DNA from: Candidatus Pacearchaeota archaeon
Lineage (GTDB): Archaea; Nanobdellota; Nanobdellia; Pacearchaeales; GW2011-AR1
Length of the DNA stretch: 64,000 nt
NCBI GenBank assembly: GCA_018221305.1
Contig: JAAOYK010000056.1
Span: 26,863 to 90,862 of the forward strand
Direction: 5' to 3'
Below the pieces are notes generated by a model. The model was given only the letters and a program-made list of their open reading frames with translations, was not told the origin of the DNA and did no database searches. Positions 5,310 through 49,894 of the stretch are shown here, one piece after another (positions within the stretch are counted from its first letter, which is position 1; every line of letters starts with the position of its first letter). Both the position numbers and the translations under genes were made by a program.

Positions 5310-5520
5310 TTTTAATTGTCCAGTTGGTTTTGGAATCTATTGCCTCTGCCTCTACCAAGGCCTTTTCCGCAAGCGCCTCGCCCTTGTCCTCTTCCAGCAA
5401 TTGGTTTTGCTCCTTTGCAATCTCCCATTTGCCTTCCAGTTTTTGATCCTTTTCCTTCAGGGCCTGTTCCGTCTCTATTTGGCATTTTCTTTTTCCTCCA
5501 TTAAATTTAGTTACCTTCAA
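5293..5520 (-). CDS. small charged coiled-coil protein overlapping the start of the DUF134 gene
   Basis: 75 aa, E/K-rich. The region has locally higher GC and a 17-nt overlap with the downstream gene, suggesting an operon. A Pro-rich ORF on the opposite strand is probably spurious. Confidence 0.3.
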   Translation of the reverse strand: MKVTKFNGGKRKCQIETEQALKEKDQKLEGKWEIAKEQNQLLEEDKGEALAEKALVEAEAIDSKTNWTIKNVKTM

Positions 5521-17155: not shown

Positions 17156-17282
17156 GCCGCAGTAGCTCAGTTTTGGTTAGAGCGCGTCATTGGTAATCTA
17201 AAGATCTTAATTGATTTTTATCTTTTAAGATTCATAGAATCTAAAAATGACGAGGTCCCGGGTTCGAGCCCCGGCTGTGGCT
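17156..17282 (+). tRNA. tRNA-Thr (anticodon GGT) with a ~51-nt intron at the canonical 37/38 position
   Basis: Acceptor GCCGCAG/CTGTGGC, D-arm GCTC..GAGC, anticodon stem CGTCA...TGACG. The loop TTGGTA is followed by an AT-rich insert (17196-17246) before A38. T-arm CCGGGTTCGAGCCCCGG. Confidence 0.7.
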
Positions 17283-23231: not shown

Positions 23232-23957
23232 ATGAAATGTTCTGATAATCAGGCATCATGGCTTGATACTGACGATTTAAATGATAAGGCTGAGGTGTAT
23301 TATGATGATGATAATCTTTGTGATTCTTATAGTTGTTTAAAGCAAATCTCTGACAGGGGGTCAACACCTCCACATATCCGGTTTAATCAAGGACTTATTT
23401 TTTCTAAAAAAGCTAGAGAAGATCCTACCTTGTATTCTATTGCGCAAAAAATCTTTTCAGAGGTTCTTGAATCTCCATTGTATCGTTTAGATTGTTTGCA
23501 TGCTCTTGGAAATATTAGCCTTTTGTCTGAGGATCATGAACTTGCAATACCTACTTACCGAATAGCAATAGAATCTGATCCTACTTTTAAACCTGCATAT
23601 GAGGGATTGATCGCTGGTTTTTGTTCTTTGAAAGTTTTTGAAGAAGCTGATCAAGCTTACTCTGAGGGCATTACTAATTGTGATGGCGGATTAGAGGCTG
23701 GTTTGTTTAATATGGCTTTAGCTGCGACTTTGGAAAAGGACCGCGTTAGATCTAAAAAGTGTTTTGATGCGTGCTTAAATTCTCTTGATGATCTAAGTGA
23801 GGCTTTGTCTGCTCATAATTTAGATCATTACTTTGAAAAACCAGATTTTGAAGGGTTTTTTGAATATGTTTCTAAAGATCCAGAGGGGCGATCCCTACCT
23901 CTTTTTTTGAGAACTCCTGCTTGGAAACCTAGGGAATCTTTTGGAAGTTCTGACTAA
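23232..23957 (+). CDS. TPR-like repeat protein
   Basis: Repeated A/L/Y-rich helical hairpins (ALGNISLLSEDHELAIPTYRIAIESDPTFKPAYEGL...). Confidence 0.4.
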   Translation: MKCSDNQASWLDTDDLNDKAEVYYDDDNLCDSYSCLKQISDRGSTPPHIRFNQGLIFSKKAREDPTLYSIAQKIFSEVLESPLYRLDCLHALGNISLLSEDHELAIPTYRIAIESDPTFKPAYEGLIAGFCSLKVFEEADQAYSEGITNCDGGLEAGLFNMALAATLEKDRVRSKKCFDACLNSLDDLSEALSAHNLDHYFEKPDFEGFFEYVSKDPEGRSLPLFLRTPAWKPRESFGSSD

Positions 23958-24406
23958 TGTGGTGATGCTTCTTTTGCTTGATTTGTTGAAGCACCTAAGC
24001 TTAGAAAAATGCTTGAAATTTCTTGGTTAGATAAACTTTTTGGATAAATTATGATTTGAGTTTTTGTACGTTTGCATAAATCAATGTTTTGTTTTATGCG
24101 TGACAACATGATTGCTTTATCTTTTTTTGCCATTTTTTTAATTAGTGGCCAGTCTATACCAATTTTTATGTTATTTTGTTTTGCTAATTTGCACAGAACC
24201 TCATTTAGCCCTGAGTCGCGCTGTTTCATGTAATCTTTACGATCATGTACGTGTGGGTCTAGGAATATGTCTACATCTTTATTTTCTACAACTTTTCGGT
24301 TAAATTCTTGTGATCCTGCTTGCACGACTACTGTTTCCTTTTTTTCTTTTAAGGTCTTGATTTCTTTTCTTAAGGTGTTTAAGTTTGATGTTGTTATCAT
24401 TTGCAT
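23954..24406 (-). CDS. RNase P protein component 3 (Rpp30-like), short form
   Basis: VVVQAGSQEFNRKVVENKDVDIFLDPH...IKIGIDW resembles the Rpp30 TIM-barrel core (NR.A.E..VDIL..PE). At 150 aa it is shorter than typical. Confidence 0.4.
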   Translation of the reverse strand: MQMITTSNLNTLRKEIKTLKEKKETVVVQAGSQEFNRKVVENKDVDIFLDPHVHDRKDYMKQRDSGLNEVLCKLAKQNNIKIGIDWPLIKKMAKKDKAIMLSRIKQNIDLCKRTKTQIIIYPKSLSNQEISSIFLSLGASTNQAKEASPH

Positions 24407-24452: not shown

Positions 24453-25658
24453 TTACTTATGAAGTTTTCTTTTGTTAGTTTTTAAGGCTTCAAAAACAGG
24501 CGTAGTTGCATTAACAATAAAATAAAGTGCAGAGCCTCCTCCTGTTGAAGATACTCCTTCATAATTAACTTCTGCTGCAGTATCTCCACCTAATACTGCA
24601 CAATTTTCTAAATTCTTCCTCATGCTTGCTAATACTGGGTCTGTTGCTTGTTTAAATCCTTTATTATATATCCCTGGAGTTCCTGCTAAAATTCCTCTTC
24701 CTCTTTCTTGGATCATCTGATCTAGTGATTGAATCGCAGTATTGGGTAAGATAAAATCAACTATCATGTAGTCTTTAGGAATTTGGGTATTTTTTGGATT
24801 TATTGTATGTGGGTTAAGATATTTATCATCTTGTTTTTTAGCAATAACTACTTTTTCAGGGATATGAATTTTATGTTTATTTTCTCCTCTTAAAGCTTCT
24901 GCTACTTGTTTTTCATAGGTTTTTCCACTATCTTTAATAAGAGACTTGCCAATAGGAAATCCTTGTACATGTAGAATGGTATTTAATACGATTCCTCCGG
25001 GAATAATTGCATCATAGGTTTCTAAAAAACCAGCAAGACCTGTTAGGATTTTTTCTTTTTTTATTCCTCCAAGGATAGCAACAGAGTAGCTTTCTGGGTC
25101 TTTTCCGGCCCATGGTTCTAATAATTTCATTTCTTTTAATTGACTTTTTGTTGCATAACCTGGCAAATATCTTAAAATACCTACATTTGAAGCATGGATT
25201 CTATGGGCTTTCCCAAAACCACCTACTGCAACATTTTGTCCTAATCTGGCAAATTCTGCTGCAAGAAATGGATCATCTTTTTCTTCACCTTCATTTTTCC
25301 TAGTATTTCCCATTATTGCTACTGTTCCTGGCTTTAATCCTTGAACAAATTGAACCGCTTCATAAGTGCTATTTTCTGGAAAATATTCAACTTTGGATTC
25401 TAATTTGCTGGATAAATAAGGTACAATAAAATCAAGATCTTCTGTATCTCCTTTTTTAAATCTGCCCTTGTGAGCTAAAATAATTGGGTTGCCTCCTTGA
25501 TCTAGAATATATTTTAAATCTTCAATTTCTACATCTACTCTGTCTGTGTTCTTTAGTTTACTGTTTTTATGTTTAATATTAAAATCTGCCGCATAAATCC
25601 ATTTACTGTTTGGATTTATCTTTGTTTCTTGTAATTTTGCTACATCATCGAAATTCAT
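24453..25658 (-). CDS. pgk: phosphoglycerate kinase
   Basis: ADFNIKHKN (compare VDFNVPL), ILAHKGR (compare SHLGRP) and C-terminal STGGGSALYF (compare STGGGASLE). 401 aa fits archaeal PGK. Confidence 0.8.
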   Translation of the reverse strand: MNFDDVAKLQETKINPNSKWIYAADFNIKHKNSKLKNTDRVDVEIEDLKYILDQGGNPIILAHKGRFKKGDTEDLDFIVPYLSSKLESKVEYFPENSTYEAVQFVQGLKPGTVAIMGNTRKNEGEEKDDPFLAAEFARLGQNVAVGGFGKAHRIHASNVGILRYLPGYATKSQLKEMKLLEPWAGKDPESYSVAILGGIKKEKILTGLAGFLETYDAIIPGGIVLNTILHVQGFPIGKSLIKDSGKTYEKQVAEALRGENKHKIHIPEKVVIAKKQDDKYLNPHTINPKNTQIPKDYMIVDFILPNTAIQSLDQMIQERGRGILAGTPGIYNKGFKQATDPVLASMRKNLENCAVLGGDTAAEVNYEGVSSTGGGSALYFIVNATTPVFEALKTNKRKLHK

Positions 25659-25814
25659 TATTAAAATGTAAATTAATGCATTTAAAAGAATTATTGTGAT
25701 GGATTTTGAAATATCTTTCTTATATCGTTTGCGATTAAAGGAAGTTGCAATTGAATAACCCTCTAGGGGCTAAAAATGCAATTTGGGAGAACCGCAGTGA
25801 ACTCTTTAATCGCT

Positions 25815-25909
25815 GTTATCGGTTTTCAGAGAACAAGAAGCTTTAGCTTCGCAGAGTTTTATGAGCAAATGGGGTGGGCTTCCTATTAAATAAGGGAAAG
25901 CACGATAGG
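25815..25909. repeat. left arm of nested inverted repeats (gttatcggt / gttttatgagcaaat / gggaaagcac) flanking the 25916..26188 ORF
   Basis: Three segments are perfectly complementary, in nested order, to 26326-26334, 26308-26321 and 26281-26290. Confidence 0.55.
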
Positions 25910-25915
25910 CATTAT

Positions 25916-26188
25916 TTATTTTTTTCTATTTTCATAAGCTCTTTTCCATTTATCATAACATTCTTTGTGATGCTCTTCCTGTTTTTTAAAAGCTTCTCGT
26001 ACCAATTTTGACTCGCTTTCAAACATTGGCAAAAATTGATCATGCATGTAATAAACAATGCTCATATTTATACCTTTTAAATTATTCTTTCTAATCATGT
26101 TTTGAAAAAGTGCTTTTTCCCCAACCCCTAAGTGAATATTGAAAATATCTTCAAATGCTTCGTACCAATATCTGTAATCTTCTCCCAT
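25916..26188 (-). CDS. hypothetical 90-aa protein enclosed by the inverted repeats
   Basis: MGEDYRYWYEAFEDIF...ECYDKWKRAYENRKK. Charged, helical, no recognisable motif. Confidence 0.4.
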   Translation of the reverse strand: MGEDYRYWYEAFEDIFNIHLGVGEKALFQNMIRKNNLKGINMSIVYYMHDQFLPMFESESKLVREAFKKQEEHHKECYDKWKRAYENRKK

Positions 26189-26280
26189 TCTAAATTATTT
26201 TATGAATTTAGTATCAAGAACTCTTCTTCCCCCATTAGGTTAAAGATGTTAAGCTTGCCCGGTTTTTATAGCTTTCGCGA

Positions 26281-26334
26281 GTGCTTTCCCCTATCTGGGT
26301 GGGCAGAAATTTGCTCATAAAATTACCGATAACT
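26281..26334. repeat. right arm of nested inverted repeats (gtgctttccc / atttgctcataaaa / accgataac)
   Basis: Complement of the left-arm segments. Additional short direct repeats (tagctt(t)cgc, gggtgggc) are shared between the arms. Confidence 0.55.
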
Positions 26335-26364
26335 ATATTTTTTAAGAAGTTATGATTTTAAAGT

Positions 26365-27057
26365 TTAGCTTTTGATAATTGTTCCAACAAAATGTTTATG
26401 GTTTAACAAATTATCAAGATTTTTTGTGTTTGAACCTAAAATGTATGTTGTGATGTTGTTTTGTTTTATGATCTTTGATGCTTTTTGATCTAAGACAAAA
26501 TGTTGGCCTGGTTTGTATTTGATCTTGTTTGCAATCTTAAAGAATTCTTTATGCGAAATTTCATGAATAAATTTGGCACTTTTATATTTTTGAGGGTTTT
26601 TGTCATATAGTCCCTTGACATTTGTAAGATTAATAAAGTCACATTTTAAAGATTTGGCAATCTTTGCTGCAGCACTGTCAGATGTTTCTTTTTTTTGATA
26701 TGTTAGGCCGCCACAAAAAACTATTGAATTTTTCTTAAGTGATTTTTTTATTGATAAAATATTATGTGGGATGCCTTGTTTTTGATTAATTCCAAAAAAA
26801 TGCTGAACAAAACGAGCGTTAAGGCGCGTTATTGCAATACCGACCATGCTTTGAAAATAAACTTTACGTTTATCTTTGATATGATCTAGGGCGCTCATAT
26901 AGTTGCGTGCAACACTTCCGCCCCCACAAACAATAACAAATTTATAATTTTTCAAATTTTTTAATAGAATCTTTTTTATTTCTTTTAGATATTTTGTTTG
27001 TATTTTATTTGGAACAATTAAGCTTCCGCCAAGACTAATTATTATCACCTTTTTCAT
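26365..27057 (-). CDS. pyrH: uridylate (UMP) kinase, archaeal type
   Basis: KKVIIISLGGSLIVP (amino-acid-kinase-fold N-terminus) and VIVCGGGSVARNY. 230 aa. Confidence 0.75.
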   Translation of the reverse strand: MKKVIIISLGGSLIVPNKIQTKYLKEIKKILLKNLKNYKFVIVCGGGSVARNYMSALDHIKDKRKVYFQSMVGIAITRLNARFVQHFFGINQKQGIPHNILSIKKSLKKNSIVFCGGLTYQKKETSDSAAAKIAKSLKCDFINLTNVKGLYDKNPQKYKSAKFIHEISHKEFFKIANKIKYKPGQHFVLDQKASKIIKQNNITTYILGSNTKNLDNLLNHKHFVGTIIKS

Positions 27058-30984: not shown

Positions 30985-31408
30985 TAAGTTTTTGTTTTTT
31001 GTAGCCTGTTTTTTCTACAAGTTTTTGCATTCGTTTATTTGTTATGATAACTTCAATTTCTATTTGACATTTTTGTTCTTGTTTTGCTAACTGTTCTATG
31101 TGTGCTAGCAGTTTTTGTCCAAGGCCTTGTCCTTGGTGTTGTTTTTTGACGATTAGTGAATTGATGTAAATATAATTTTTCCAAAATTGTGCTAAAAGTG
31201 CTGCAACAATTATTTTATCTTCTTCATAAACAATCATTTTGCTTACGTCTTTTTTTATGTAATCTTTTATATCTTCTATGTCGTATTCTTCTCTGTTTTC
31301 ATTGTTGCCTGCAATATTTGGGTCACTGTTAAATAATTCTAATATTTCTTGTGCGTCTTTTTTCCGTGCATCTCTTAACATTTTATTTTCTAAATATCTC
31401 CTCAACAA
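30956..31408 (-). CDS. GNAT-family N-acetyltransferase
   Basis: QGQGLGQKLLAHIEQLAKQ (Q/RxxGxG/A acetyl-CoA motif) and a C-terminal tail typical of GNAT. Confidence 0.65.
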   Translation of the reverse strand: MLRRYLENKMLRDARKKDAQEILELFNSDPNIAGNNENREEYDIEDIKDYIKKDVSKMIVYEEDKIIVAALLAQFWKNYIYINSLIVKKQHQGQGLGQKLLAHIEQLAKQEQKCQIEIEVIITNKRMQKLVEKTGYKKQKLIAFYSKKLK

Positions 31409-31946
31409 TTTTTATGCGATCTTTTATTGACATTGTAACTGAAAGGTTTACATCTGCAACCCCTGTTTTTCCACTATATTCTGCTAATTCCCAAAGTGAT
31501 ACTCCTAGAATCTTTGCAGTCTTTTCCATAGAAATTCCATGTTCGTAAAGGCGGGAAGCTTTGTTAATTTTTGCTCGCCGGAACACATCTTCTATATATT
31601 TTTTTAATCTGCCTGACAACTTTTCTATTAATTCTCTGATAAATGATATTTCTGTTCTAAATGCTTGAATGTTATCTTTTTCTAAAGCTTCTATAGAATT
31701 GTTTAATGCTTTGATATAACTGGAATAAAAACCTTGCCAATTTTTTTCTTGTTTATAACTGTCTCTTTCTATTAGTTTGCTTAAAGAATAAATTATAACT
31801 GCAACAGAAATTATGTCTGGGTCTTGATGAATTGACGAAGAATGAAGAATCTCTTCACTTAATTGTTTTACTTTTACATAATCTTGATTTGTAAGTGCTG
31901 AATTTACCTTTTTTAACACTTTTAAAACATGTGATTTTTCTTCCAT
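31383..31946 (-). CDS. hypothetical protein with a C-terminal HTH
   Basis: GISMEKTAKILGVSLWELAEYSGKTG is helix-turn-helix-like. Confidence 0.4.
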   Translation of the reverse strand: MEEKSHVLKVLKKVNSALTNQDYVKVKQLSEEILHSSSIHQDPDIISVAVIIYSLSKLIERDSYKQEKNWQGFYSSYIKALNNSIEALEKDNIQAFRTEISFIRELIEKLSGRLKKYIEDVFRRAKINKASRLYEHGISMEKTAKILGVSLWELAEYSGKTGVADVNLSVTMSIKDRIKIVEEIFRK

Positions 31947-39811: not shown

Positions 39812-41200
39812 TTAAATCTTTTTTTCCATATAAATATTATTTTTGTCTAATGTGTAGCCTAGCTTTTTGTAATACTCTCGCGCGCCGATCCCTGAAATGA
39901 TTTTAAGGGAGTTTATTTTATATTTTCTGGTTATATCTTCTGCATGTGCTATTAATTGTTTGCCCAGGCCGCTGTGTTGGCCTAAAAACTTTGCTTTTTC
40001 GCCTATCTTTAATGCTTTACCATAAACATGAACCTCGCGCACGATTGCTGTTTTTGAGGTATTATTAATCCTTAGGCGACAGAGTCCAAATAAGATATTA
40101 TCTTTGTTTACAAATTCTATAAAATATTCTGTCCCATTGCTTGACTTATATTTAGATGTTTTAAGTTTTAATTTATTGTTAATAGTTTTTCCAGGTTTTA
40201 GGTCACGAATAGCAAAACCTATTTCTCTAAATCTTATTTCCTTAATTTTTGATTTCTTGATTTTTAAATGGGCCTCAATATCGCGTCTAAGATCGATTCT
40301 AGTTGTCCCAGCGATTAAAAAGTCTGGCGCGATCTCTCGCATGATACGCATTACCCTGCAATAGTTTGGGATTATTTTCATTATTTTAATAATTAGTTCT
40401 TGAATGTCATCTTTACTGTATGGATGATATTTGCCTTGATTGTACATTTTTGCAAGAGCTGCTCCTTGTAAGACTTGGGTTGGGTATATTTTTAATTGGT
40501 CTGGTTTAAAACTTTGATCTTTGAATAATTGTTTGAACATTTGCATGTCTTTTTTTGGGTTTGATTTTGGAAGGCCTAACATCATATGGTACCCAACTTT
40601 AAACCCTGCTTGTTTAAGGCGCGTGCTTGCATCTATTACATCTTTAACTTTGTGGCCCCTATTTACAAACTTGTAAATATTGTCATCTAAACACTGAACC
40701 CCTATTTCTACGCGTGTGGTGCCCCAGGAGAGCATTTTTTGTATGTCTTTGTCTGTGCACGTATCAGGGCGTGTTTCAATACATAATGCAACACATCTAT
40801 GTTTTGCTTTTTGATTAAGTTTTAGTGCATCTTTTAAGTTTTTTGAAACTTTGTTGTTTAGTGCATCATAACATTTTTTTATGAAATTGTTTTGATACTT
40901 GGTTGGATATTCCAGAAAATTTCCACCCATTATGATTAATTCGATTTTGTCAACTGGATGATTCATTAATTTGAAGGCTTTAAGCCGAGATTGTAATTGT
41001 TTAAATGCGTCATATTTTAGTATTGCTGCGCGGAGTACTGGTGGACTTTTTGGTGTGTATGATTGTGGGACATTAAGTGATGGACAATAAATACAGGTTC
41101 CGTGCTTGCATTTCTTTGGTTTGCACATGACTGCTATAGGGCTTACGCCAGCTAATGTTTTTGATGGTTTTCTTATCTCTCCTGGTTTTGGTAATTGCAT
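39812..41200 (-). CDS. elp3: Elp3-family radical SAM plus GNAT tRNA-modifying enzyme
   Basis: N-terminal CKHGTCIYCPS radical-SAM cysteine motif, C-terminal GNAT (GLGKQLIAHAEDI...KLGY). 462 aa fits archaeal Elp3. Confidence 0.8.
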   Translation of the reverse strand: MQLPKPGEIRKPSKTLAGVSPIAVMCKPKKCKHGTCIYCPSLNVPQSYTPKSPPVLRAAILKYDAFKQLQSRLKAFKLMNHPVDKIELIIMGGNFLEYPTKYQNNFIKKCYDALNNKVSKNLKDALKLNQKAKHRCVALCIETRPDTCTDKDIQKMLSWGTTRVEIGVQCLDDNIYKFVNRGHKVKDVIDASTRLKQAGFKVGYHMMLGLPKSNPKKDMQMFKQLFKDQSFKPDQLKIYPTQVLQGAALAKMYNQGKYHPYSKDDIQELIIKIMKIIPNYCRVMRIMREIAPDFLIAGTTRIDLRRDIEAHLKIKKSKIKEIRFREIGFAIRDLKPGKTINNKLKLKTSKYKSSNGTEYFIEFVNKDNILFGLCRLRINNTSKTAIVREVHVYGKALKIGEKAKFLGQHSGLGKQLIAHAEDITRKYKINSLKIISGIGAREYYKKLGYTLDKNNIYMEKKI

Positions 41201-41277
41201 CTTCTTATAATATTAATACTTTATTATATATTCTAGAGAATATATTTAGTTTATAAAGCTATTTTTTTAATTAATGT

Positions 41278-41559
41278 ATGAAGTCGTCTAAAAAAAATAT
41301 TGAGAGTTATTTAAAAGGGATCGAAAGTCCTAGCTCTAAAAATATTTTAGCGACTGATAAATTAATCATTAGTAGTGGCCCTTTAATTATTGCTCTTCCT
41401 GTAATAAAAATTAGGGAGGAAGGTGTTACTGCAGGTTCTGGGAAATTGTCTATAACCAGAAAATATGAAGACTGTTTAATTTTAAAGCCTGATGGGACCT
41501 ATTTAATTGGAAACAAAATTGTTGATGATACTCAAGAATTTTTTAAATATCATCGTTAA
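41278..41559 (+). CDS. hypothetical protein
   Basis: 93 aa. Confidence 0.3.
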   Translation: MKSSKKNIESYLKGIESPSSKNILATDKLIISSGPLIIALPVIKIREEGVTAGSGKLSITRKYEDCLILKPDGTYLIGNKIVDDTQEFFKYHR

Positions 41560-41581
41560 GAGTAATGGTTAATTTTTTAAG

Positions 41582-42292
41582 TTGATTTTCTTTTCTTTTT
41601 TTATGACAATACCTATAAAAATTATTAGCAGAATGCAGTATTTAGAAAATAATGCAAAGCCAAACCAGGAACAAATTTGGGATGTAATTGCAAAACCTTG
41701 GAGAACTTATGTTCAGAAGAAAATTCCATTAGTTGTTGAATTTTTAAAAAATAAACGCGGTAAAATAATTGATCTTGGATGTGGGAGTGGACGAAACATG
41801 ATAAAAAATAAAGAGATTGAATATTATGGTCTTGATTTTTCAAAAAAACAAATAGAAAATGCTGCTCTATTGACTGCTGTTGAAGATATTAATGTTTTGC
41901 TTTTCCAGTCAGCAGTAGATAAACTTGACAAAGATACATTTAAGGATGAAATGTTTGATCATGGATTGTTTATGGCTACACTTCATTGTTTGGAAACTGA
42001 GCAAGAGAGATTAAATTCTTTAAAAGAACTTTATCGGATCTTGAAAAATGGAGCACAGGCTATGATTAGTGTTTGGAGTAGTGATGATAAGCGTTTTAAG
42101 GGGTTAAAAGGAGACATTTATATGTCTTGGAGGGAAGAAAATGTTCCTTATATGAGGTCTTATTATTTGTATGATAAACAAGAATTAATTGATTTGTTAA
42201 AATCTGTTGGTTTTGAAATCTTACAATTTTATGAATCTCTAACTGATGACAGATTTTCTAGAAAAAACTGGATTTTAAGGATAAAAAAATAG
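41582..42292 (+). CDS. class I SAM-dependent methyltransferase
   Basis: IIDLGCGSGRN (motif I) and DHGLFMATLHCL (motif II/III region). The real start is probably MQYLENN at 41633. Confidence 0.6.
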   Translation: MIFFSFFMTIPIKIISRMQYLENNAKPNQEQIWDVIAKPWRTYVQKKIPLVVEFLKNKRGKIIDLGCGSGRNMIKNKEIEYYGLDFSKKQIENAALLTAVEDINVLLFQSAVDKLDKDTFKDEMFDHGLFMATLHCLETEQERLNSLKELYRILKNGAQAMISVWSSDDKRFKGLKGDIYMSWREENVPYMRSYYLYDKQELIDLLKSVGFEILQFYESLTDDRFSRKNWILRIKK

Positions 42293-49773: not shown

Positions 49774-49894
49774 TGAGCCTACCAGGATTTGAACCTGGGA
49801 CCCCTGCCTTTCTTAGCAGATGCTTAGAAAATACATTTCTAGTGAAACATACTCTTATAAGAGCAGTGCTCTGACCTGACTGAGCTATAGGCTC
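49774..49894 (-). tRNA. tRNA-Ile (anticodon TAT) with a ~46-nt intron, assuming the canonical 37/38 intron position
   Basis: Reverse strand: acceptor GAGCCTA/TAGGCTC, D-arm GCTC..GAGC, anticodon stem CTGCT...GGCAG, loop 5' part CTTATA followed by an AT-rich insert, T-arm CCAGGTTCAAATCCTGG. Confidence 0.55.

Follow-up and report, generated by a model that had tools for sequence, protein, structure and literature searches.

In a 64,000-nt stretch of a Candidatus Pacearchaeota contig (hereafter the window), three nested pairs of inverted repeats bracket a 90-residue open reading frame (ORF), ORF90, on the minus strand between pgk and an archaeal pyrH. The feature is confirmed as real, a curiosity known from a single sequence and present in a single copy in the window. 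Our leading interpretation, which we hold tentatively, is that the repeats lie in the 5′ and 3′ untranslated regions (UTRs) of a small orphan gene, and that these UTRs pair with one another in a leadered mRNA that has no Shine-Dalgarno sequence. All structures described below are predicted ones.

Pairing between the flanks of ORF90

The three repeat pairs, which would form the helices H1 (outer), H2 (middle) and H3 (inner), were located with a repeat finder, and their coordinates are collected in Table 1. H1 and H2 are perfect over 9 nt and 14 nt, respectively, while the inner pair (25890-25903 with 26281-26294) matches at 93% over 14 nt around a perfect 10-nt core, GGGAAAGCAC. Two G·U pairs lengthen H3 to 16 bp on the minus strand; their plus-strand counterparts would be A·C mismatches. 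ORF90 lies wholly between the inner arms, that is, inside the loop. The arms are not collinear, as the interval between H1 and H2 measures 33 nt, with a hairpin of its own, on one side and 2 nt on the other. The repeat finder also returned short direct repeats of 8–12 nt (CGGTTTTCAGAG/CGGTTTTTATAG, GGGTGGGC twice and GAACTCTT twice). The original prediction had described complementary segments of 9, 14 and 10 nt in nested order, extra short direct repeats and a single 90-residue minus-strand ORF within them, and each of these was recovered, with the inner pair somewhat longer than had been proposed. One of the direct repeats, GCCCACCC in the minus-strand RNA (GGGTGGGC on the plus strand), has its two copies in direct rather than inverted orientation, so that the internal loop between H2 and H3 holds the motif twice.

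Folding of the region, which the original prediction had suggested, yields stable long-range helices on the minus strand. Both the minimum free energy (MFE) and the centroid folds of this strand hold H1 and H2, and H3 is present in the MFE fold. Pair probabilities of 0.96–0.99 for H1 and 0.94 for H2 were obtained under four transcript boundaries, including the whole pyrH mRNA; on the plus strand the values for these helices vary with context between 0.02 and 0.97. Arm-to-arm pairing has a ΔΔG of −31.1 kcal/mol for the minus strand and of −23.6 for the plus strand, compared with −8.5 ± 3.7 for dinucleotide shuffles, none of which (0 of 1000) reached the observed value. Cofolding of the predicted leader and trailer gave −74.5 kcal/mol, compared with −48.0 when they are folded separately.

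A gene-centred test compared the pairing of 150 nt upstream with 150 nt downstream for 88 ORFs of the window. ORF90 came first, at −28.3 compared with −8.7 ± 4.3 (z about −4.6). The runner-up, at −21.5 kcal/mol, was a 93-residue ORF at 41278-41559 on the plus strand (flanks 41128-41277 and 41560-41709), and its pairing is probably due to chance because the paired stretches sit within neighbouring genes. Among the top 14 segment pairs of the whole window, the combined H1–H3 structure, or panhandle, is the only one with both arms outside long ORFs.

Predicted promoter and transcript

The promoter geometry of the genome was read from the window. In 17 of its 68 genes, a TATA-like octamer (TTTWAAWW, TTTATAWW or TTAAAAWW, i.e., TTTWAAWW and close variants) begins at precisely −29 relative to the A of the ATG, with about one occurrence or fewer at other positions. 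Such a sharp geometry indicates that mRNAs are predominantly leaderless; a minority of the window's genes carry a GGAGG- or GAGGT-like Shine-Dalgarno sequence instead. Upstream of its ATG, ORF90 has neither an octamer at −29 nor a Shine-Dalgarno sequence. The octamer TTTAAAAT on the minus strand at 26362-26355 would place the transcription start (+1) at G26333, which is the exact first base of H1. Because the octamer class is rare (background 0.004–0.008 per strand position), this coincidence, at about 0.4–0.8% per position, is unlikely to have arisen by chance, and it is independent of the pairing statistics. At this locus, the only TATA-like octamers seen on the plus strand lie inside ORF90. 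Three observations, namely the G·U pairs, the ensemble probabilities and the promoter geometry, thus point to the minus strand, the sense of ORF90 and of both its neighbours.

On the interpretation that we favour, the spacer would contain one independent minus-strand transcription unit. It would start at G26333, 29 nt downstream of the octamer start, and comprise a 145-nt leader, the 90 codons of ORF90 and a trailer of about 100–140 nt that stops close to the U5 tract at 25776-25772. Within the leader, the initial 53 nt would pair with the trailer through helices of 9 bp (H1), 14 bp (H2) and at most 16 bp (H3), enclosing ORF90 in a panhandle of about 39 bp. Since these helices lie outside the coding region, they would not be unwound by translating ribosomes and could coexist with translation. 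With its 5′ end buried in the H1/H2 duplex, the mRNA would be protected from both 5′-to-3′ and 3′-to-5′ exonucleases, and the pairing would insulate the ORF90 unit from pyrH read-through. It may also control translation initiation on a leadered, Shine-Dalgarno-less mRNA in an otherwise leaderless genome. Stabilisation or insulation, possibly with initiation control in addition, is the role we favour on this model. The ends of the transcript, formation of the stem in vivo and all functional consequences are what we infer from this arrangement.

Archaeal termination depends on oligo-U, and the first U5 tract after ORF90, about 40 nt past the 3′ strand of H1, is therefore the putative terminator of the unit. 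The only terminator-like site of the region is the short hairpin in the asymmetric H2–H1 loop (25837-25850). A separate stem-loop of 83 nt, with a perfect basal stem and a GC-rich tip, has a fold z-score of −3.2 for the minus-strand and −1.9 for the plus-strand sequence and matches nothing in Rfam; it contains the U5 tract that may end the ORF90 unit. Beyond it, pgk has its own octamer at −29, which should make it independent of read-through from the ORF90 unit. The leader also holds a short upstream ORF, the start of which (AAUGGGGGAAGAAGAG) resembles that of ORF90 (AAUGGGAGAAGAUUAC).

Table 1: Mapped parts of the ORF90 unit and its immediate surroundings, in the order of minus-strand transcription.
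Feature	Position	Strand	Remarks
TATA-like octamer TTTAAAAT	26355–26362	−	Predicted promoter of the ORF90 unit (putative role)
H1 5′ strand GUUAUCGGU	26325–26333	−	9-nt perfect repeat; first base is the predicted transcription start
H2 5′ strand UUUUAUGAGCAAAU	26309–26322	−	14-nt perfect repeat
GCCCACCC motif, 5′ side of H2/H3 internal loop	26297–26304	−	Direct repeat D7
H3 5′ strand AGAUAGGGGAAAGCAC	26281–26296	−	16 bp including two G·U
11-codon upstream ORF in leader (AUGGGGGAAGAAGAG...UAA)	26200–26235	−	Frame translation MGEEEFLILNS, then stop
ORF90	25916–26188	−	90-residue hydrophilic protein of a tiny uncharacterised family
H3 3′ strand GUGCUUUCCCUUAUUU	25888–25903	−	Repeat finder and folding
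Second GCCCACCC motif, 3′ side of H2/H3 internal loop	25872–25879	−	Direct repeat D7
H2 3′ strand AUUUGCUCAUAAAA	25857–25870	−	Repeat finder and pair probability
5-bp hairpin GAAGC-UAAA-GCUUC, then U-rich run	25837–25850	−	In asymmetric H2–H1 loop
H1 3′ strand ACCGAUAAC	25815–25823	−	Repeat finder and pair probability
First U5 tract after ORF90	25772–25776	−	Read from sequence; putative termination site
83-nt stem-loop, 10-bp basal stem GCGAUUAAAG/CUUUAAUCGC	25731–25813	−	Between panhandle and pgk promoter (repeat I8)
pgk TATA-like octamer	25680–25687	−	At −29 from pgk ATG (25658)

The closest working analogy is the 5′–3′ interaction of type I toxin mRNAs (hok, and aapA/IsoA of Helicobacter), in which the mRNA ends pair over a long distance around a whole small ORF and give a stable full-length transcript (PMC6733600). 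The ends would pair around the ORF in the same way here, with predicted probabilities of at least 0.94 for H1 and H2 and a ΔΔG of −26 to −31 kcal/mol. The likeness is incomplete, however: the toxin systems are bacterial, encode hydrophobic toxins, sequester a Shine-Dalgarno sequence and have an antisense RNA antitoxin, whereas ORF90 is archaeal and hydrophilic, has no Shine-Dalgarno sequence, has its ATG 93 nt from the nearest helix (H3), and no antisense gene is evident at its locus. If the analogy were taken further, ORF90 might first be made as a translationally silent closed panhandle, with a leader that has no Shine-Dalgarno sequence and a buried 5′ end, to be activated later either by endonucleolytic trimming to a leaderless mRNA or by joining of the paired ends into a circular RNA. 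We think this highly improbable; were it true, it would be an archaeal counterpart of the bacterial type I 'inert primary transcript' logic, applied to a hydrophilic protein of a new family.

Archaeal precedents bear in part on the leadered mRNA with paired UTRs that we favour. In haloarchaea, translational control has been found to need both UTRs, an interplay that was defined genetically (Brenneis & Soppa, 2009, PMC2636863). The haloarchaeal mRNAs are likewise leadered, with 5′ and 3′ UTRs proposed to act jointly, but their interplay was not established as a panhandle of 39 bp, neither the organisms nor the genes are related to those considered here, and the pairing at ORF90 is predicted from sequence. 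Helices that join distant sequences on either side of a functional RNA segment, as proposed here, also occur in the rRNA flanks, the cbf5 mRNA intron and the intron in the 5′ UTR of HVO_1309, and can lead to excision or circularisation (PMC7714728). Archaeal bulge-helix-bulge (BHB) introns have a 3-nt bulge, a 4-bp helix and a second 3-nt bulge together with host exons, and both are missing at the ORF90 helices. Neither haloarchaeal UTR control nor rRNA stems nor BHB introns match the layout at ORF90.

The ORF90 family and its genomic setting

ORF90 is identical to the NCBI hypothetical protein GOV14_06195, known from a single 92.9-kb contig, and forms a singleton cluster. When 1.84 billion representatives were searched exhaustively with HMMER, a sole full-length homologue emerged, P0122 (87 residues, E 6e-5), and a profile search added a third family member, P0123, also of 87 residues. 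Common to all three are the N-terminal motif M-[GA]-E-D-x-R-x-W-Y, the string IHLG and a C-terminal W-x-x-A-[YH]. Judged by this conservation at the protein level, ORF90 is a real gene of a very small family. Searches of Pfam, NCBIfam, PHROGs and PDB sequences gave no match to it, and it is absent from viral, phage and plasmid collections, including tblastn searches against phages and plasmids. Pattern scans of viral and metagenome contigs gave no further ORF90 loci. The protein is hydrophilic (grand average of hydropathy (GRAVY) −0.98; maximum 19-residue Kyte-Doolittle value 0.48) and has no membrane-spanning segment. Its AlphaFold (AF2) model is all-helical, with a predicted local distance difference test score (pLDDT) of 53, which makes it unreliable and too poor for a fold search.

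The neighbourhoods of the homologues are unrelated to that of the window. In one locus (L007) the gene comes after a GIY-YIG gene and is flanked by a perfect 20-nt direct repeat, while in two others (L008 and L009) it comes after a tRNA gene and a gene for an 88-residue membrane protein. The L008 homologue lies about 0.4 kb from the tRNA gene, near the contig end, and the next gene starts 34 nt past its stop codon. Successive genes in these loci are each followed by the same motif of 18–20 nt, which is AAACGCCCTGCAAGAGCATC in L007 (581-600 and 947-966) and, differing between the contigs, TATAACAATGCTTAAAAA in L008 (6262-6279 and 6719-6737). The motifs may serve as promoters, terminators or cassette boundaries common to successive genes. 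An upstream region is conserved between L007 and L008, which suggests a hairpin-bearing leader some tens of nucleotides long; on this sequence comparison, the ORF90 family appears to tend toward leadered mRNAs.

The spacer between pgk and pyrH measures 706 bp, and ORF90 and both neighbours are all encoded on the minus strand. The identity of pgk (24453-25658) is supported by a PF00162 match (E 3e-54), and that of pyrH (26365-27057), an archaeal UMP kinase gene, by TIGR02076 (171 bits compared with a cutoff of 158). Genes farther away are housekeeping or uncharacterised ones: an Rpp30-like gene, pheS, pheT, DUF357 and uppP. A locally higher guanine-plus-cytosine (GC) content, as claimed originally, holds for the two flanks alone. 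In 100-nt windows these reach 37–41%, as compared with 22–26% in the adjacent spacers and 26–33% in the interior of ORF90; the ORF90 GC equals that of the genome. At their highest the flanks attain 46% in 100 nt, which is within the range of the window's tRNA-bearing spacers (42–64%).

Scans of genome and metagenome collections gave no close relatives of pyrH, only sequences of 26–29% identity. Eight loci, in six distinct contexts, carry the nearest pgk homologues (53–65% identical), with unrelated neighbourhoods of which several are bacterial-looking, and the eight offered no orthologous or empty pgk-pyrH site for comparison. Some of these homologues (loci L012–L014) stand on contigs whose bacterial-looking neighbour genes include an extracytoplasmic function (ECF) sigma factor and a very large FHA/kinase protein, and Streptomyces phosphoglycerate kinases are about 40% identical to the protein encoded by the window's pgk. 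From these comparisons, the window's pgk may be of bacterial type or laterally acquired.

Some further observations concern other parts of the window. Rfam identifies two tRNA genes, both missed by ARAGORN, that span about 120–127 nt (17156-17282 on the plus strand and 49774-49894 on the minus strand) and so should contain introns of about 50 nt. The second is also bracketed by a 17-nt inverted repeat (49765-49781/49888-49904). The 'intergenic' region 5310-5500 reaches 54% GC in 100 nt and has no Rfam match; by eye, it looks like a small unlisted minus-strand coding region rather than an RNA gene.

Competing explanations and significance

How far the pairing exceeds chance depends on the test chosen, and several results weigh against a leadered mRNA with paired ends. 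A blind scan of the window ranks the panhandle sixth of 9,224 segment pairs, the five that pair at least as strongly all overlapping or lying within predicted coding sequence. A gapped inverted-repeat chain of equal score arises about 1.45 times per block-shuffled (composition-preserving) window, and the look-elsewhere cost is real because the feature was singled out visually within 64 kb. Within the fold itself, H3 has a pair probability of 0.24 in the minus-strand ensemble and the whole-region fold has a z of only −1.6. The G·U evidence for the strand is weak because it consists of two pairs only, and a G·U pair in the neighbouring 83-nt hairpin favours the opposite strand. A second, weaker TATA-like octamer (26345) would put the start inside H2, so the start at 26333 remains a predicted one. 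The flanks at both homologue loci (L007 and L008) are not alignable to those of the window, and their flank-to-flank ΔΔG values of −10.9 and −6.5 kcal/mol equal background; the long-range stem is specific to the window's copy. No relative is near enough for covariation, with the best pgk homologue 65% identical and ORF90 a singleton.

The window-wide statistics and the lack of conservation of the stem keep alive the main rival explanation, that the inverted repeats have no function, being either chance or neutral and recently arisen complementarity in a large spacer with a small orphan gene. The window contains 31 inverted repeats of at least 13 nt within 1.5 kb, which also fits this explanation. 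We nevertheless regard it as unlikely in view of the first rank of ORF90 in the gene-centred test, the non-coding and GC-enriched nature of both arms, the start of the outer helix exactly at the promoter-predicted +1 on the ORF90 strand, and the exact fit of ORF90 in the loop. A mobile or acquired cassette would account for other aspects of the locus. The ORF90 unit could have arrived with imperfect terminal inverted repeats, or could have been inserted into the loop of a pre-existing long palindrome downstream of pyrH, and the size of the spacer in an otherwise compact genome, the unrelated neighbourhoods of this orphan gene in L007, L008 and the window, the 20-nt direct repeat in L007, the proximity of the L008 homologue to a tRNA gene and a contig end, and the loss of pgk synteny in the six related contexts are all compatible with such an origin. 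Yet the unit occurs once in the window and has no target-site duplication (outside the outer arms no direct repeat is found, cgct preceding GTTATCGGT and tata following ACCGATAAC), and domain searches of the neighbouring genes found no transposase or integrase nearby. The asymmetric interruption of the arms (33 vs 2 nt) fits an RNA junction rather than transposase ends, and the absence of ORF90 from viral, phage and plasmid collections and its genome-like GC also argue against a cassette, which we judge improbable. The original prediction's more specific proposal, imperfect terminal inverted repeats of a miniature inverted-repeat transposable element (MITE), was rejected. The intergenic unit of about 520 bp is indeed bounded by inverted repeats as a MITE would be, but it is single-copy in the window, shows no target duplication, has non-collinear arms and carries a conserved protein gene with full-length homologues. 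The suggested search for arm copies, extended over the window and the fetched loci, showed that the arms occur once: arm searches and blastn of the flanks against the rest of the window and those loci returned only chance-level matches of 11–16 nt.

Inversion of the segment by a recombinase is a different possibility, in which about 450 bp between the 14-bp arms would be flipped so that an external promoter (26362-26355) reads ORF90 in sense (ON) or in antisense (OFF). A perfect 14-bp inverted repeat around a 438-bp segment, a size typical of invertons, and a predicted promoter just outside the arms are as this would have them, but three nested, asymmetrically spaced pairs of arms are unnecessary for inversion and are more typical of RNA. 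No recombinase gene adjoins ORF90, and the sole candidate, a 187-residue protein encoded 5 kb away (31383-31946), matches HTH_7 only marginally and lacks a resolvase catalytic domain. We consider an inverton very improbable, and find it harder still to credit that a structured non-coding RNA (RNase P, signal recognition particle (SRP) or other) has its two halves in the GC-richer flanks, split by an ORF-bearing intron that the archaeal splicing endonuclease would cut out at the stem. That two of the seven tRNA genes in the window contain introns speaks for such an arrangement, as does the Rpp30-like gene 1.3 kb away (150 residues, 23954-24406 on the minus strand), although its match to PF01876, the RNase P subunit p30, scores 30.9 bits, under the Pfam cutoff of 35. 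The strings GGGGAAAGCAC on the minus strand and AAGGGAAAGCAC and GGCAGAAAUUUGCUCAUAA on the plus strand bear a loose resemblance to CR-I and CR-V of RNase P RNA; the CR-I-like and CR-V-like strings lack the mutual pairing expected of P4, and at this locus every base of the A-rich CR-I-like string is paired. A permissive cmscan of 851 nt (25600-26450, E up to 10) matched neither flank to an Rfam family, giving two snoRNA-like hits far under their thresholds, and a gathering-threshold Rfam scan of the whole window detected tRNAs only and no RNase P RNA. The flank GC of about 40% also falls well short of the 56–70% of the genome's tRNAs, and no canonical 3-4-3 bulge-helix-bulge stands in register with H1–H3.

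Several other identities were tried for the region and rejected. In a leader-trailer pattern search for a BHB intron, the strict hits (two on the minus and six on the plus strand) were scattered and at chance level, with none in register with the helices, and no host RNA was found for such an intron, as the flanks match no RNA family and their six-frame translations are full of stops. The same stop-broken frames exclude pseudogene remnants in the flanks. The long-range RNA stem put forward by the original prediction is thus upheld by thermodynamics, strand asymmetry and promoter geometry, while its reading as a 'processing or intron-like' structure is not, with no BHB motif, host RNA or conservation to support it. 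A C/D box small RNA is unlikely given a snoCD11 score of 22.4 bits compared with a threshold of 60 and the absence of UGAUGA from both flanks. Rfam and ARAGORN found no tRNA gene in the region, whether whole or split. There is no turn of GC skew at the locus and orc1/cdc6 was not found nearby, which dismisses a replication origin.

Should the panhandle form in vivo, it would offer an archaeal example, physically defined, of 5′ and 3′ UTRs that pair around an entire ORF, and one from DPANN, a group in which post-transcriptional control is almost unexplored. It would also raise the question of how a leadered mRNA with no Shine-Dalgarno sequence is translated in an otherwise leaderless genome. 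If it does not form, the locus would simply hold a small orphan gene whose spacer is unusually large. Either way, the −29 TATA geometry provides a simple rule by which transcription starts may be predicted in this lineage.

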